From positions 121,190 through 185,189 of the forward strand of contig JAUXTU010000015.1 in assembly GCA_030679145.1 (NCBI GenBank): 64,000 bases of DNA. The letters run 5' to 3'. This document shows positions 55,563 through 58,777 of the stretch, one piece after another. Source of the DNA: Bacteroidota bacterium. GTDB lineage: Bacteria; Bacteroidota; Ignavibacteria; UBA10030; UBA8401. Made by a program: the position numbers and the translations under genes. The notes beneath the pieces are model-generated. The model was given only the letters and a program-made list of their open reading frames with translations. It was not told the origin of the DNA and did not search any database. Position 1 is the first letter of the stretch, and the number at the start of each line of letters is the position of its first letter.

Positions 55563-55608
55563 TGTATTCCCCTTTAAATAGTGTGTGAAATATTACCCTC
55601 ACAAAAAT

Positions 55609-55648
55609 ATCCTCCCCCTGCAAAGGGGGAGGATTAAGGAGGGGGTCA
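55609..55648. repeat. phage intercistronic C-rich/SD-hairpin repeat, copy 1
   Basis: ATCCTCCCCCTGCAAAGGGGGAGGATTAAGGAGGGGGTCA. Confidence 0.55.
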
Positions 55649-55651
55649 AAA

Positions 55652-56131
55652 TTATGCCAGCGTAATAACCGTAATCGCATCGCTGAACTTTGCAGCGTCG
55701 CGTTTAAATCGCAGTTCATTTCCTTGCGACTCTTCCTGGTTGAACGGGAAGTCCGGTTGTTTCACAAGTGAGCAGCGCACAAATTTATACGCTTTTGTTG
55801 CATCGGTCACGCGCATGATCACATCAAGAATTTTATTCTCAAAACCTTCCAGCGCGGTCTCTTGCGCTGTCGTACGTTCCACAGATCGAGCCGTTAAAAT
55901 AACACCAACACCATTGTTGGATTCCAGTCCGTCATCAACTTCTGTTGTGTACGGATTGCCAACCAGCTTGGTTTTTTTCTTTTGCGCTGCACCAACTTTA
56001 ATCCATGTTGCATCGCCTCCGGCGTTGATCACTGCCAGCGATGGACTCGTTGTAACCGTTCCTTCAGCAGCTCGTACCGCAACAAAGATCTGCACGGATT
56101 CCGAGATAACTTTAGTTAGATCGTGGTTCAT
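55652..56131 (-). CDS. putative major tail tube protein (non-contractile tail)
   Basis: 159 aa. It sits immediately upstream of the chaperone/TMP genes. No sheath gene is present. Confidence 0.4.
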   Translation of the reverse strand: MNHDLTKVISESVQIFVAVRAAEGTVTTSPSLAVINAGGDATWIKVGAAQKKKTKLVGNPYTTEVDDGLESNNGVGVILTARSVERTTAQETALEGFENKILDVIMRVTDATKAYKFVRCSLVKQPDFPFNQEESQGNELRFKRDAAKFSDAITVITLA

Positions 56132-56146
56132 TGTAAACCTCCTATG

Positions 56147-56602
56147 TTAATACTGTTTGTTAAATGTCAAAATGTAACTTGCTTGATAGATCACTAAGCC
56201 GCTCTTTGTTGTTTCAACCCAAAACCTGCGTCCCTGTTTAAATGCCGGAAGAAGTATGCCGTTCGCTGTCAATCGCTTTCCTTCCAATCCTTCTTCCAGT
56301 TGATCTAAAATTGTGTAGCAGTCGTCATTACTCTCTTCCCGCGAAAGCAGAGATCTCGAACCAACCACATGCACAAATGTCATATCACGCAGCGTCTGAA
56401 ATTCCTGATCGATACGCTGTTCATCTCTCGGCACGTCGTCATCAAAAAAAATTAAATCGAACGGTGCAAGCGTCAGGTTCCGTTCAAAATGTTCCGGTGT
56501 AAATTTCCCTTCATAGTGGGCAATGGTCTTCAACGTTGGGATCAAAGATTTCACCTCTTCGATCTGTGCATTAATTATTTCTTTAATCGTCAACGTAGCC
56601 AT
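56147..56602 (-). CDS. phage head-tail/neck hypothetical protein (Mu gp37-like position)
   Basis: 151 aa. Located in the connector gene block. Confidence 0.3.
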   Translation of the reverse strand: MATLTIKEIINAQIEEVKSLIPTLKTIAHYEGKFTPEHFERNLTLAPFDLIFFDDDVPRDEQRIDQEFQTLRDMTFVHVVGSRSLLSREESNDDCYTILDQLEEGLEGKRLTANGILLPAFKQGRRFWVETTKSGLVIYQASYILTFNKQY

Positions 56603-57036
56603 TACACACCTTCAAGCAGCCAGCGCGACACAACACGCGACGCATCATTCAAAAATTCATTTGAGAAAACTAAATACGGACGCGCTTTTATTCGTAATCG
56701 GCGCGAGCCGTTTTTTGTTTTTATATCGCTGTCAAACCCGAATTGATGAATCGCCGCATACGGCAAGTTCGAGCCATGTATGATTGTGTCGCCTTGTACT
56801 TGCGGCGTTGCAGCAGATTTCATCAATCGGGAAGTATCAACCAACGTTTGTCCACCTTCCCGAATTGCGCGTTGACTTTTCTCCCAACGTGAGGCACGCC
56901 CACCTTGCCGGAAATTTTCAATGATGTCGCTTCCGCTCATCACTGCAAGTTCCTGCATCACATTATGTTTATCACCGGTGCGAGAAAACAATCGCTCGAT
57001 GATTTTATTTGCCTTATCAAAATTTTTGTCGTTCAT
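56602..57036 (-). CDS. phage virion morphogenesis / tail completion protein (P2 gpS / Mu gpG-like family)
   Basis: GGQTLVDTSRLMKS and YAAIHQFGF motifs are characteristic of the family. Confidence 0.5.
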   Translation of the reverse strand: MNDKNFDKANKIIERLFSRTGDKHNVMQELAVMSGSDIIENFRQGGRASRWEKSQRAIREGGQTLVDTSRLMKSAATPQVQGDTIIHGSNLPYAAIHQFGFDSDIKTKNGSRRLRIKARPYLVFSNEFLNDASRVVSRWLLEGV

Positions 57037-57042
57037 AATTTT

Positions 57043-57084
57043 CTCTCCCTCTCCCTATAAGGGAGAGGGTTGGGGTGAGGGTCA
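57043..57084. repeat. phage intercistronic C-rich/SD-hairpin repeat, copy 2
   Basis: TCTCCCTCTCCCTATAAGGGAGAGGGTTGGGGTGAGGGTCA. Confidence 0.6.
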
Positions 57085-57513
57085 GAATCCCGTCATCGAA
57101 TCTTTATTAAACACACGTTCATTACTGCTCACCTTAGCATTGCGCACGCTGTTATTTGCTGGCGGCGGATCAATGCCGATGGTTGCTTTTCGTTTTGCAA
57201 CATCTTCCCAAAAACTAACCTCGCGTTCAAAATTATCTTTCACAACGTCATCCATCCCGACCTTGTTGGATCGGTTCGACCATAAATAATACAGCGAAAT
57301 TATTGCACAGCTTTTACGAACTCTCTGCGTTATGTACGTCCCGCTCAGCGGCACAGCAAACTGAATCGCCGCGTATGAATCAATCAGTGACTGCGCATCT
57401 TCAATTGCCTGTGTCACCTTCGACGTATCAATCACCGTTCCGTTTGCACCTGTTAATCCAGCAAGTTCATCCGGAGTTACTTCTTTTAAAATGTCAGCCT
57501 GTGTGCAATACAT
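57082..57513 (-). CDS. DUF1320 (Mu gp36-like) head-tail joining protein
   Basis: 143 aa. The N-terminal pattern MYCTQADILKEVTPDELAGLTGA...IEDAQSLIDSY matches DUF1320. Confidence 0.5.
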   Translation of the reverse strand: MYCTQADILKEVTPDELAGLTGANGTVIDTSKVTQAIEDAQSLIDSYAAIQFAVPLSGTYITQRVRKSCAIISLYYLWSNRSNKVGMDDVVKDNFEREVSFWEDVAKRKATIGIDPPPANNSVRNAKVSSNERVFNKDSMTGF

Positions 57514-57523
57514 TTATAACTTT

Positions 57524-57562
57524 CTTCCCTCTCCTGTAAGGAGAGGGATTGAGGGTGAGGTC
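57524..57562. repeat. phage intercistronic C-rich/SD-hairpin repeat, copy 3
   Basis: CTTCCCTCTCCTGTAAGGAGAGGGATTGAGGGTGAGGTC. Confidence 0.6.
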
Positions 57563-57563
57563 T

Positions 57564-57598
57564 TAGAAAATGTGCGCAGATATTCTCCGCGCACACCT
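57564..57598 (-). terminator. attenuator/terminator hairpin directly after the major capsid gene
   Basis: On the - strand: GGTGTGCGC-GGAGAATATCT-GCGCACA-TTTTCT. Confidence 0.45.
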
Positions 57599-57643
57599 TA
57601 ATGTCTTGAACTGAGGGGAAGACAGTTCAAAACAAAAAATCAA

Positions 57644-58675
57644 TTACGCACCTGCTCCGGTAGAACCGTATGCAAAATGATACAATCCATAACCCGCGTT
57701 GTCGCGCGAATCGGCTCCGAATAAAAATTCTTTATTCATGAACACGTTCGTGTCGGATGAATTGGTCAACGAAACAAACTCAGGTTTCTTGCGCTCCTGG
57801 AAGATCAACGCTTTGATACCGTTCGCCTCTACAAGAATAAACCATGCGGTCGCACTGGTAATCTGCGGACTCTTTACATACTCTGCAGAACCTTTCCAAA
57901 TATTCGCTCCACCGGCTGCAACGGTATCAGCATTCAATAATTGTTTTGCAACGCTTTCTAATTCCGGTCCCGTAACTAATGTTAATTTTTCCGTGCCATC
58001 AAAGATCGGATTGTTTTGATCGTCTTTCATTCTGCCGATTGATGCCAATGCCGCTCCGTACGCTACGCCGTCTGCAGCAAGAACGGCAACTCCTTTATTG
58101 CCTCCGCCTTGATGGTCGGTTGCAAAGAACGCTTTCGCGTCGTAGCACAATGCAGTGAAGCCGTCATTTAATAATTTGAAAACAATCTGATCCGGATGTT
58201 TCTTAGCAGATCCACCCATCGAAGCAAAAAGATTTGTGAACAGACCGAATGTGTCGTCCATAATATCATTACGCGGAACTGCAACGGTCGACTCCCAATC
58301 TTTATTCTCGATAGCCCACTTGAATCCTTTAAGGTTCGAGATCTTACGTTCTTTAATCCATTCGCGCATTTTTGGGAATGCACCAAGCCATTCATGTATT
58401 TCTGTTTTTGTCGTGCTCGGAACCACCATCGCAATTTTTGTATACTGCGGTTCAGCTTCCGAAAAAGCTTTATTGAACACCGTTTTAAACGTGGTATAAA
58501 GCGATGTTAATGTTGCGCTGTTTACCACAAGACCAAGCACCAACGCACCGCCAATGCCGTAAAAAAAATTATGATTGGTGAAACCCTGTCCGGCAAATAC
58601 CGGAACAAACGATGTAACAATCAGCGAGATGATCATAAACATCGCTCCAATTGTTTTATTAAGAATTTGTTTCAT
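57644..58675 (-). CDS. Mu gpT-like major head (capsid) subunit with an unusual ~45-aa hydrophobic N-terminal extension
   Basis: YTKIAMVVPSTTKTEIHEWLGAFPKMREWIKERKI matches the Mu-like gpT family signature region. 343 aa. Confidence 0.55.
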   Translation of the reverse strand: MKQILNKTIGAMFMIISLIVTSFVPVFAGQGFTNHNFFYGIGGALVLGLVVNSATLTSLYTTFKTVFNKAFSEAEPQYTKIAMVVPSTTKTEIHEWLGAFPKMREWIKERKISNLKGFKWAIENKDWESTVAVPRNDIMDDTFGLFTNLFASMGGSAKKHPDQIVFKLLNDGFTALCYDAKAFFATDHQGGGNKGVAVLAADGVAYGAALASIGRMKDDQNNPIFDGTEKLTLVTGPELESVAKQLLNADTVAAGGANIWKGSAEYVKSPQITSATAWFILVEANGIKALIFQERKKPEFVSLTNSSDTNVFMNKEFLFGADSRDNAGYGLYHFAYGSTGAGA

Positions 58676-58732
58676 TGCTGTTACTCCTTTTAATTGATGA
58701 AAAAATATTTCAAAACTTTTCTCGCTTACTAT

Positions 58733-58771
58733 TCCCTCTCCCTGAAAGGGAGAGGGTTAGGGTGAGGGTCA
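58733..58771. repeat. phage intercistronic C-rich/SD-hairpin repeat, copy 4
   Basis: TTCCCTCTCCCTGAAAGGGAGAGGGTTAGGGTGAGGGTCA. Confidence 0.6.
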
Positions 58772-58777
58772 AGATCG

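Follow-up and report, generated by a model that had tools for sequence, protein, structure and literature searches.

Four intergenic elements in the late operon of a Mu-like prophage are probably copies of the BoxC/PIT/TM/HPG1 repeat

The DNA analysed here is a stretch of 64 kb (the window; 41% GC) of contig JAUXTU010000015.1 from the Bacteroidota metagenome-assembled genome (MAG) GCA_030679145.1. The late region of a Mu-like prophage extends from about 49.3 kb to the right end of the window, with its genes on the - strand. Four units of about 38 nucleotides (nt) were found in this region, each in a gap between two open reading frames (ORFs) of the head/neck operon, and they are numbered here by position as the gap 1 (55610), gap 2 (57047), gap 3 (57526) and gap 4 (58734) copies (Table 1). 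The gap 4 copy, which on the mRNA begins 6 nt past a TAA stop codon, lies between the gene of a 231-aa structural protein and the major capsid gene. The gap 3 copy, a register-shifted variant, lies between the capsid gene and gp36, downstream of a conserved double hairpin. The gap 2 copy occupies the entire 45-nt gap between gp36 and a gpG-like gene, and its terminal TCA provides gp36 with its TGA stop codon. The gap 1 copy lies between a 159-aa gene and a 158-aa gene with a chaperone-type frameshift. An earlier note, made from the letters alone, had placed a C-rich hairpin element in four intercistronic gaps of this operon; its positions were correct to within 1-3 nt, all four sites do lie between ORFs, and the mRNA does carry the C-rich strand, since the genes are on the - strand.

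Read on the + strand, each unit consists of a pyrimidine arm, a loop of 5-6 nt, a complementary purine arm, a TTA or TTG loop and a G-rich third block (the Hoogsteen block) that mirrors the purine arm except for one A, which has become T. This third block, the triplex feature by which the repeat family is defined, had been missed: the C-rich 5' flank that had been described on the mRNA is its complement. The sequence quoted for all four gaps was present only in the copies at 57.05 and 58.74 kb, and the other two are variants; a repeat search of the window grouped the four elements into two families, D2 and D5. A three-block detector found exactly these four sites in the 64 kb, with no fifth copy, and 0 in 20 shuffled windows. 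The block GGGAGAGGG, with at most one mismatch, occurred 11 times in the window against 2.96 +/- 1.64 expected, and 0 of 100 shuffles reached 11; eight of the 11 near-matches fall inside three of the four copies. Chance similarity of the copies was thus ruled out by the shuffles.

Table 1. Features of the prophage late region, in window coordinates; the block positions of each copy follow the blocks in brackets
Feature	Position	Strand	Remarks
Endolysin gene	61287-61949	-	prophage late region
gpI-type protease gene	59566-60792	-	prophage late region
231-aa structural protein gene	58778-59473	-	prophage late region
Gap 4 copy	58734-58771	+ (reading)	pyrimidine arm CCCTCTCCC (58734-58742)-TGAAA (58743-58747)-purine arm GGGAGAGGG (58748-58756)-TTA (58757-58759)-Hoogsteen block GGGTGAGGG (58760-58768)-TCA
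gpT major head protein (capsid) gene	57644-58675	-	
Gap 3 copy	57526-57560	+ (reading)	pyrimidine arm TCCCTCTCC (57526-57534)-TGTAA (57535-57539)-purine arm GGAGAGGGA (57540-57548)-TTG (57549-57551)-Hoogsteen block AGGGTGAGG (57552-57560)
gp36 gene	57082-57513	-	ATG at 57513
Gap 2 copy	57047-57084	+ (reading)	pyrimidine arm CCCTCTCCC (57047-57055)-TATAA (57056-57060)-purine arm GGGAGAGGG (57061-57069)-TTG (57070-57072)-Hoogsteen block GGGTGAGGG (57073-57081)-TCA (57082-57084)
gpG-like morphogenesis protein gene	56602-57036	-	ATG at 57036
Gap 1 copy	55610-55648	+ (reading)	pyrimidine arm TCCTCCCCC (55610-55618)-TGCAAA (55619-55624)-purine arm GGGGGAGGA (55625-55633)-TTA (55634-55636)-Hoogsteen block AGGAGGGGG (55637-55645)-TCA
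Three small neck/tail genes		-	between the gpG-like gene and the tape measure gene
Tape measure protein gene	52552-54909	-	followed by distal tail genes

A full-text literature search with the repeat sequence led to Holder et al. (2015; Nucleic Acids Res. 43:10126, PMC4666352), whose Table 1 lists 23 TMECO copies of E. coli K-12. The gap 4 copy of the window, CCCTCTCCCTGAAAGGGAGAGGGTTAGGGTGAGGGT, is essentially TMECO copy 2, CCCTCTCCCTTGAGGGAGAGGGTTAGGGTGAGGGT. That paper treats the motif as one with two earlier descriptions, the BoxC repeats (Bachellier et al., 1990s) and the PIT elements (Hoyne and Maher 2000, 2002) (PMC4666352). The same 21-mer was given as HPG1 by Kaplan et al. (2016; PMC5100583), whose HPG1/HPG2 belong here too. 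The consensus CCCTC(T/G)CCC-loop-GGGAGAGGG-(TTA or CCG)-GGGTGAGGG was found in the gap 2 and gap 4 copies, which agree near base for base with type A of the family (CCCTCTCCC-loop-GGGAGAGGG-TTA-GGGTGAGGG); the gap 1 and gap 3 copies keep the geometry but not the exact consensus sequence. The E. coli motif is always intergenic and without strand bias, and it has been linked to local genomic instability (PMC4666352). The window copies are likewise strictly intergenic, multi-copy and variable in their flanks, and they are tied to local rearrangement, in a small sample with no matched control gaps. We conclude, with a probability of roughly 85%, that the four elements are copies of the BoxC/PIT/TM (TMECO)/HPG1 repeat and not a phage-specific signal, and the four sites should be annotated as BoxC/TM-type repeats, with no new phage regulatory motif. 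Rfam 15 gave 0 matches for the whole window at the gathering threshold, and in E-value mode the sole match within 55.5-58.9 kb was Antizyme_FSE (20.3 bits against a cut-off of 40 bits, E = 0.58).

The spread of the repeat was then compared across bacteria and viruses. By BLAST, the 40-nt window copy was found in 5,419 of 5,426 complete E. coli genomes, with 15 places in the median genome; 74,899 of the places were on chromosomes and 57 on plasmids, and the best identity to the copies of the gap 4/gap 2 type was 94.9% over 39 nt. The 21-nt core GGGAGAGGGTTNGGGTGAGGG gave at least 120 matches in IMG/VR, in contigs of 36-73% GC; nearly all of the matches listed were preceded by the CCCTC(T/G)CCC arm, and their flanks were unrelated. 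At least 120 matches were also obtained in GTDB genomes, and those listed included Proteobacteria, Planctomycetota, Chloroflexota, Cyanobacteria, Nitrospirota, Elusimicrobiota, Caldithrix and Muribaculaceae. The chance expectation for 20 specified bases was estimated at well under one match. Among cultured phages (INPHARED), 4 of 50,697 records carried the element, a count that short-query BLAST probably keeps too low. The earlier note had held that a generic genome-wide repeat would speak against its own proposal. In the broad sense the motif is such a repeat, being present in nearly all E. coli genomes and in many phyla; in the narrow sense this does not hold for the host DNA read from this genome, with 0 copies in about 59 kb (positions 1-49.3 kb of the window plus the roughly 9.5-kb stretch L321).

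No consistent bias of orientation relative to transcription was seen in the sampled loci: the G-rich strand was the sense strand in 36 versus 21 cases among viral loci and in 20 versus 22 among genomes, as judged with a crude ORF caller whose 'inside ORF' class is probably inflated. Distances to stop and start codons varied widely. Nine of ten sampled IMG/VR copies lay between clear phage morphogenesis genes, in both orientations (terminase and portal, 4; capsid, 1; protease, 1; baseplate hub, 1; tail proteins, 2). In four of these ten contigs (L023, L098, L110 and L112) the large terminase and portal genes are the neighbours of the copy; the four apparently represent two phage lineages and include both orientations.

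Next, the geometry of the four copies was analyzed. Every copy allows 8-9 Watson-Crick pairs and 8-9 triads (G.G, A.A and T.A), all without a mismatch, and has a 3-nt second loop; the triads run antiparallel to the purine arm in all four, as the rules for purine-motif triplexes require. All four copies also have the layout set out for an ITxF triplex, in which the three blocks follow one another on a single strand, stems measure 6-15 nt, loops are short and no more than one mismatch is allowed. The gap 1 and gap 3 copies are divergent, with all three blocks altered in step, and the gap 1 copy gives 9/9 triads on either strand. In E. coli copies, the G-rich strand is known from in vitro work by circular dichroism (CD) and nuclear magnetic resonance (NMR) to fold back twice on itself, as single-stranded DNA, into a very stable class II (purine-motif) intrastrand triplex with melting temperatures of 70-82 C (PMC4666352). 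E. coli copies that fold in this way are nearly identical to two of the window copies, and for the window sequences the triplex is a prediction. For the transcript, a purine-motif triplex was rejected because the mRNA holds the C-rich strand and, according to the literature, such triplexes do not form in RNA. A pyrimidine-motif triplex of the C-rich RNA would match 8-9 of 9 triads, but only with protonated cytosines.

The same G-tracts have been read differently. Kaplan et al. (2016) proposed a G-quadruplex (G4) switch, in which the four G-tracts of purine arm and tail fold as a G4 on the template strand that toggles with the hairpin or duplex and so regulates transcription; the identical E. 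coli 21-mer showed ion-dependent CD changes, which the authors read as a switch between G4 and hairpin (PMC5100583). The gap 2 and gap 4 copies do fit the canonical pattern of four G3+ tracts with N1-7 spacers, but the pattern is lost in the gap 1 copy (G5, G2, G2, G5) and the gap 3 copy (G2, G3, G3, G2), which keep 9/9 triads. Holder et al. counted 18 imino signals by NMR, which fit a triplex and not a G4 (PMC4666352). Variant copies elsewhere also co-vary in the mirror, triplex sense. All fetched loci together gave 320 perfect hairpins that are non-canonical and have purines in the 3' arm, many of them mere register shifts of the canonical sequence. These hairpins scored 6.52 with their own tails and 5.78 +/- 0.10 with tails swapped between them, and none of 500 shuffles attained 6.52. 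The true variant arm/tail pairs included GGGAGAAGG/GGATGAGGG, GGGGGAGGG/GGGTGGGGG and GGGAAGGGG/GGGGATGGG. Because the variants keep their triads and co-vary while the G4 pattern is lost, the conserved feature, as judged from these sequences, appears to be the mirror, triplex-type layout and not the G4, in agreement with Holder et al.; we rejected the G4 as the conserved feature and consider a G4 switch at these sites improbable.

The distribution of the repeat among related phages was also investigated. Distant Mu-like loci served as a negative control only: 0 canonical copies were found in 49 head loci from IMG/VR (359 kb), and the capsid loci from IMG/VR (these 49) and from JGI metagenomes (23 loci) contained neither a close relative (best identity 49%) nor a canonical copy. 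Among the distant loci the detector picked out just two sequences, a divergent three-block variant (L291) and a weak match with two mismatches (L308). Closer relatives were found by capsid protein and their DNA was fetched; these were L314, L316, L318 and L319, with capsid identities of 90, 78, 70 and 58%. They carry 2, 0, 3 and 0-1 copies, respectively, partly in other gaps. In L314 the gap 4 copy is kept with a point mutation in the stem, the gap 2 copy has a 16-nt insertion, and gap 3 holds a different insert; some copies are decaying, as both L314 copies show. L316 has no copy, an unrelated G+C-rich hairpin stands at the gap 4 position, and an overlapping upstream gene replaces gap 2; compared with L316, the gap 3 copy of the window is a clean insertion of about 39 nt between CTAA and AAAGT. 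In L318 two copies flank the conserved post-capsid hairpins, and the third stands directly ahead of the gpG-like gene, where the upstream gene is a different ORF of 782 aa whose TGA stop codon once more coincides with the element's first three bases. At the gap 4 position of L319 there is just a degenerate look-alike. Orthologous gap 2 copies were thus found in L314 and L318 and in neither L316 nor L319.

This presence and absence, with gaps that shift among relatives, indicates that the repeat is lineage-specific and not a conserved phage control signal. The fixed position that a conserved regulator of Mu-like late operons would call for was not found, either in the 49 distant loci or among five close relatives, whereas the double hairpin behind the capsid gene is conserved in all of the latter. 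The earlier suggestion of a binding site for a late regulator, or of a dedicated coupling or processing signal, was not supported, since the same sequence occurs in many phyla, relatives lack it or have it elsewhere, and both orientations are found in other loci. A wider version of the binding-site idea is that the near-invariant sequence, with its TTA loop and the T within GGGTGAGGG, is recognized by a phage late regulator or by a widespread mobilising enzyme, comparable to the transposases associated with repetitive extragenic palindromic (REP) sequences. Conservation beyond the needs of the fold (about 95% identity between E. coli and a prophage of a 41% GC Bacteroidota) speaks for such recognition, as do the TCA end and TTNNA loops that the copies of this phage lineage share, which suggest copying from one another. 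However, no candidate gene stands beside the copies in the window or the relatives, the variant copies keep geometry and not sequence, the presence of this sequence in unrelated phyla is beyond what a phage-specific regulator can account for, and no mobility gene has been reported with the element in the literature (PMC4666352). We regard protein recognition as very improbable, slightly more so than the G4 switch.

The gap 2 copy lies at the exact breakpoint of a mosaic with L314. The window and L314 are 80-95% identical in nucleotides over a segment that runs from the protease gene to the gpG-like ATG and takes in gp36 and the gap 2 copy; within a few codons of that ATG the identity drops to about 45% (56602-57084 versus L314 7460-8022). 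At the protein level, identity is 88-90% for the structural protein and capsid, 86% for gp36, and 42% and 32% for the next two genes. At the same junction an extra gene of 147-189 aa is present in L316, L318 and L319 and absent from the window and L314. The association of copy and breakpoint is a single case with no matched controls, and it fits the published link of the motif to rearrangement.

We then examined the copies as RNA. With ViennaRNA, which models hairpins and not triplexes, each copy on the mRNA formed a hairpin of 10-11 bp with -17.8 to -21.6 kcal/mol (gap 4 copy, -19.5; gap 1 copy, -21.6), a strong hairpin, as the earlier note's hairpin reading would have it, and the folds of the gaps had z-scores of -1.7 to -7.7. 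The gap 1 hairpin, with 11 pairs (7 G-C) and a loop of 4 nt followed by AUUUUUGUGA, was listed as terminator-like. The gap 1 copy shares this stem-loop with a U-run with intrinsic terminators, whereas the copies in gaps 2, 3 and 4 have no U-run and the E. coli PIT elements have no terminator activity (PMC4666352).

The purine arm of the gap 2 copy ends at a distance of 10 nt from the ATG, and GGGAG, partly inside the stem, stands 8 nt before it; the 3' arm plus AGAG is the only Shine-Dalgarno-like sequence of the gpG-like gene, whose start codon is backed by a one-to-one N-terminal alignment with the relatives. In gap 3 the purine arm ends 13 nt before the ATG of gp36, and the AGAAAG context of the copy-free L316 is kept, so that the arm need not be the ribosome-binding site of gp36. 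The arms of the gap 4 and gap 1 copies end 58 and 47 nt upstream of the ATG, and these genes have ribosome-binding sites of their own (AAGGAG or AAGGGG). Of the earlier proposal that the 3' arm is the ribosome-binding site in two copies, 6-8 nt before the ATG, the gap 2 case stands in substance, since its arm supplies a site-like sequence; the gap 3 arm is 13 nt and not 6-8 nt away. Opening of the gap 2 hairpin by a terminating ribosome was considered and rejected, because by our own reckoning from ribosome geometry the stop codon lies 12 nt before the stem.

These hairpins raise a serious alternative, which does not exclude the identity of the repeat: an intercistronic mRNA hairpin may be under selection to tune the ratios of the late proteins, through mRNA protection, attenuation or occlusion of the ribosome-binding site, with BoxC as one interchangeable cassette. 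All copies lie between cistrons and three of four are within 0-6 nt of the upstream stop codon; besides the fold energies and z-scores given above, this role would suit the gap 1 copy, which is terminator-like, and the gap 2 copy, which is kept in the window, L314 and L318 and supplies the ribosome-binding site. L316 has its unrelated hairpin in the same structural-protein/capsid gap. In the protease/structural-protein gap, some G+C-rich hairpin or repeat-like sequence is seen in each relative whose DNA covers it, though not always of the same family. As a hairpin forms in either orientation, the mixed orientation elsewhere is no contradiction. On the other hand, a hairpin function leaves the conservation and co-variation of the third, Hoogsteen block unexplained. 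The canonical repeat is absent from L316 and L319, L318 has no hairpin in the structural-protein/capsid gap, and the distances to stops and starts vary widely in the sampled loci. The E. coli PIT elements have no promoter or terminator activity and follow no positional rule relative to ORFs (PMC4666352), and the gap 2 stem would not be opened by the ribosome that terminates on gp36. We consider a selected hairpin role possible, at well under even odds.

We lean, by a narrow majority of our confidence, to the reading of the copies as passengers with side effects. BoxC is a small non-coding intergenic repeat, with no known transposase, that occurs across bacteria. It would have spread into permissive gaps between the late-operon genes of this Mu-like prophage, where its copies would be lineage-specific passengers, gained and lost between close relatives. 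At the DNA level the copies would mark, and may promote, recombination and indel junctions. At the mRNA level a hairpin of -18 to -22 kcal/mol just past stop codons could shield the upstream message from 3' exonucleases; the gap 2 hairpin would partly bury the ribosome-binding site of the gpG-like gene, and the gap 1 hairpin with its U-run resembles an intrinsic terminator or attenuator. We infer that such effects on recombination and expression are structural side effects.

Several results weigh against a passive passenger. All copies of this phage lineage place the C-rich strand in the mRNA. The prophage has 4 copies in 3.2 kb and the host DNA has 0 in about 59 kb, so that the repeat looks phage-enriched in this genome, which a purely passive, host-derived repeat does not predict. 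The passenger reading does not account for how the family multiplies and keeps an identity of about 95% across phyla, and in vivo no triplex footprint was found in E. coli (PMC4666352). Other G+C-rich hairpins occupy the structural-protein/capsid or protease/structural-protein gap where the repeat is absent, and these substitutes hint at selection for a hairpin as such. Finally, the gap 2 copy is present in the window, L314 and L318 and gives both a stop codon and a ribosome-binding site.

Compared with the known BoxC/PIT/TM/HPG1 repeats, the window copies agree in the three-block triplex geometry of all four copies and in the type A sequence of two. They differ in that they lie inside a prophage late operon, whereas Holder et al. 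found no association with phages, plasmids or transposons (PMC4666352); in their setting, a 41% GC Bacteroidota MAG with no copy in the flanking host DNA read; and in that one copy gives stop codon and ribosome-binding site and two are geometry-only variants. The recurrence of the repeat within phage morphogenesis operons, a modest extension, is contrary to that 2015 statement.

Two other classes of DNA repeat were compared. REP sequences and the mosaic elements built on them (BIME) are also short, G+C-rich, intergenic, multi-copy hairpin repeats that form stem-loops at the 3' ends of cistrons when transcribed. Their sequence is unrelated, they are imperfect palindromes without a third mirror block, and REP has the RAYT transposase family, whereas none is known for BoxC/TM. 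REP stem-loops protect upstream mRNA within operons, and by analogy such protection would be the most plausible RNA-level effect of the window copies. Mirror-repeat tracts that form H-DNA are likewise polypurine/polypyrimidine tracts that are mirror-symmetric and pair by Hoogsteen bonds, and they too have been linked to recombination and to the stalling of polymerases, but H-DNA needs unwinding of the duplex and has two blocks, whereas the BoxC-type element has three consecutive blocks on one strand and folds as single-stranded DNA.

A further and unlikely possibility is that BoxC/TM multiplies within temperate phages, is carried by them and acts as recombination junctions between morphogenesis modules. 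If true, phage carriage would help to explain how a sequence of about 37 nt stays about 95% identical from Enterobacteria to Bacteroidota. The density of copies in the prophage relative to the host, the copy at the exact mosaic breakpoint, the shared ends and loops of the lineage and the sampled IMG/VR copies among morphogenesis genes are consistent with it; the scarcity of the element in cultured phage records and its overwhelmingly chromosomal places in E. coli argue against it.

The element type is already known, and the additions made here are modest: the repeat recurs in the late operons of phages, it lies at a mosaic breakpoint, and it has been co-opted to provide a stop codon and a ribosome-binding site. 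This prophage shows the repeat colonising late operons, and its gain, loss and damage between close relatives. The case thereby bears on a small question that goes back to the 1990s, the function and spread of this extremely conserved, cross-phylum repeat.

Other structured sequences were observed in the same operon. The post-capsid double hairpin (57563-57628, - strand) was found in all four relatives. Its parts are GAACTGTC..CAGTTC at 57608-57628 and, at 57563-57597, GGTGTGCGCGG..CTGCGCACA with TTTTCTAA after it; the pair folds with -34.8 kcal/mol, and the whole gap has a z-score of -7.7. In contrast to the BoxC copies, it is probably the genuine signal for attenuation, termination or processing behind the capsid gene in this phage group. 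The protease/structural-protein gap (59474-59565) holds a third G+C-rich repeat-like sequence, GATCCTTCGACTCGC..GCTCAGGATGAC, with related versions in the same gap of L314 (4919-4997) and in a different gap of L318 (1958-2126); L316 has a hairpin of the GTATCCCGGCA..TGCCGGGATC type there instead. The same intercistronic slots are thus filled by different hairpin families in different relatives. L318 has a further repeat in three successive gaps (5564-5645, 6081-6169 and 7046-7142), consisting of CATCCCCC, an inner hairpin, ..CGCGC.. and GGGGGAT just before the ribosome-binding site.

A second, unrelated hairpin family, GTCATTCCCG-loop-CGGGAATC, was found at 27602-27638, 29322-29395, 34377-34450 and 62481-62517, with a 70-nt unit shared at 29.3 and 34.4 kb. 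Three of these copies lie in host DNA and one, which fills the gap between a 97-aa and a 407-aa gene, in the prophage, so that at least one family is common to the prophage and the host-type repeats.

The 176 nt before the tape measure gene (54910-55085) look like a gap but are coding. An alternative frame runs from inside the 158-aa gene (55086-55562, - strand) to a stop codon just ahead of the tape measure ATG, and it is conserved at the protein level in L316 and L319. The 158-aa gene and this frame are a classic programmed frameshift of tail-assembly chaperones (G/GT type). The frame ends in a terminator-like hairpin, ACCCGTCA..TGACGGGT, followed by TTTTATTTT. To the left of the prophage lie cellular genes that match an NCBI MAG exactly, including those of GlnD, PBP2, RodA and NosZ; the last, at 18735-20570, encodes a Sec-dependent nitrous-oxide reductase identical to MDP1675620.1.

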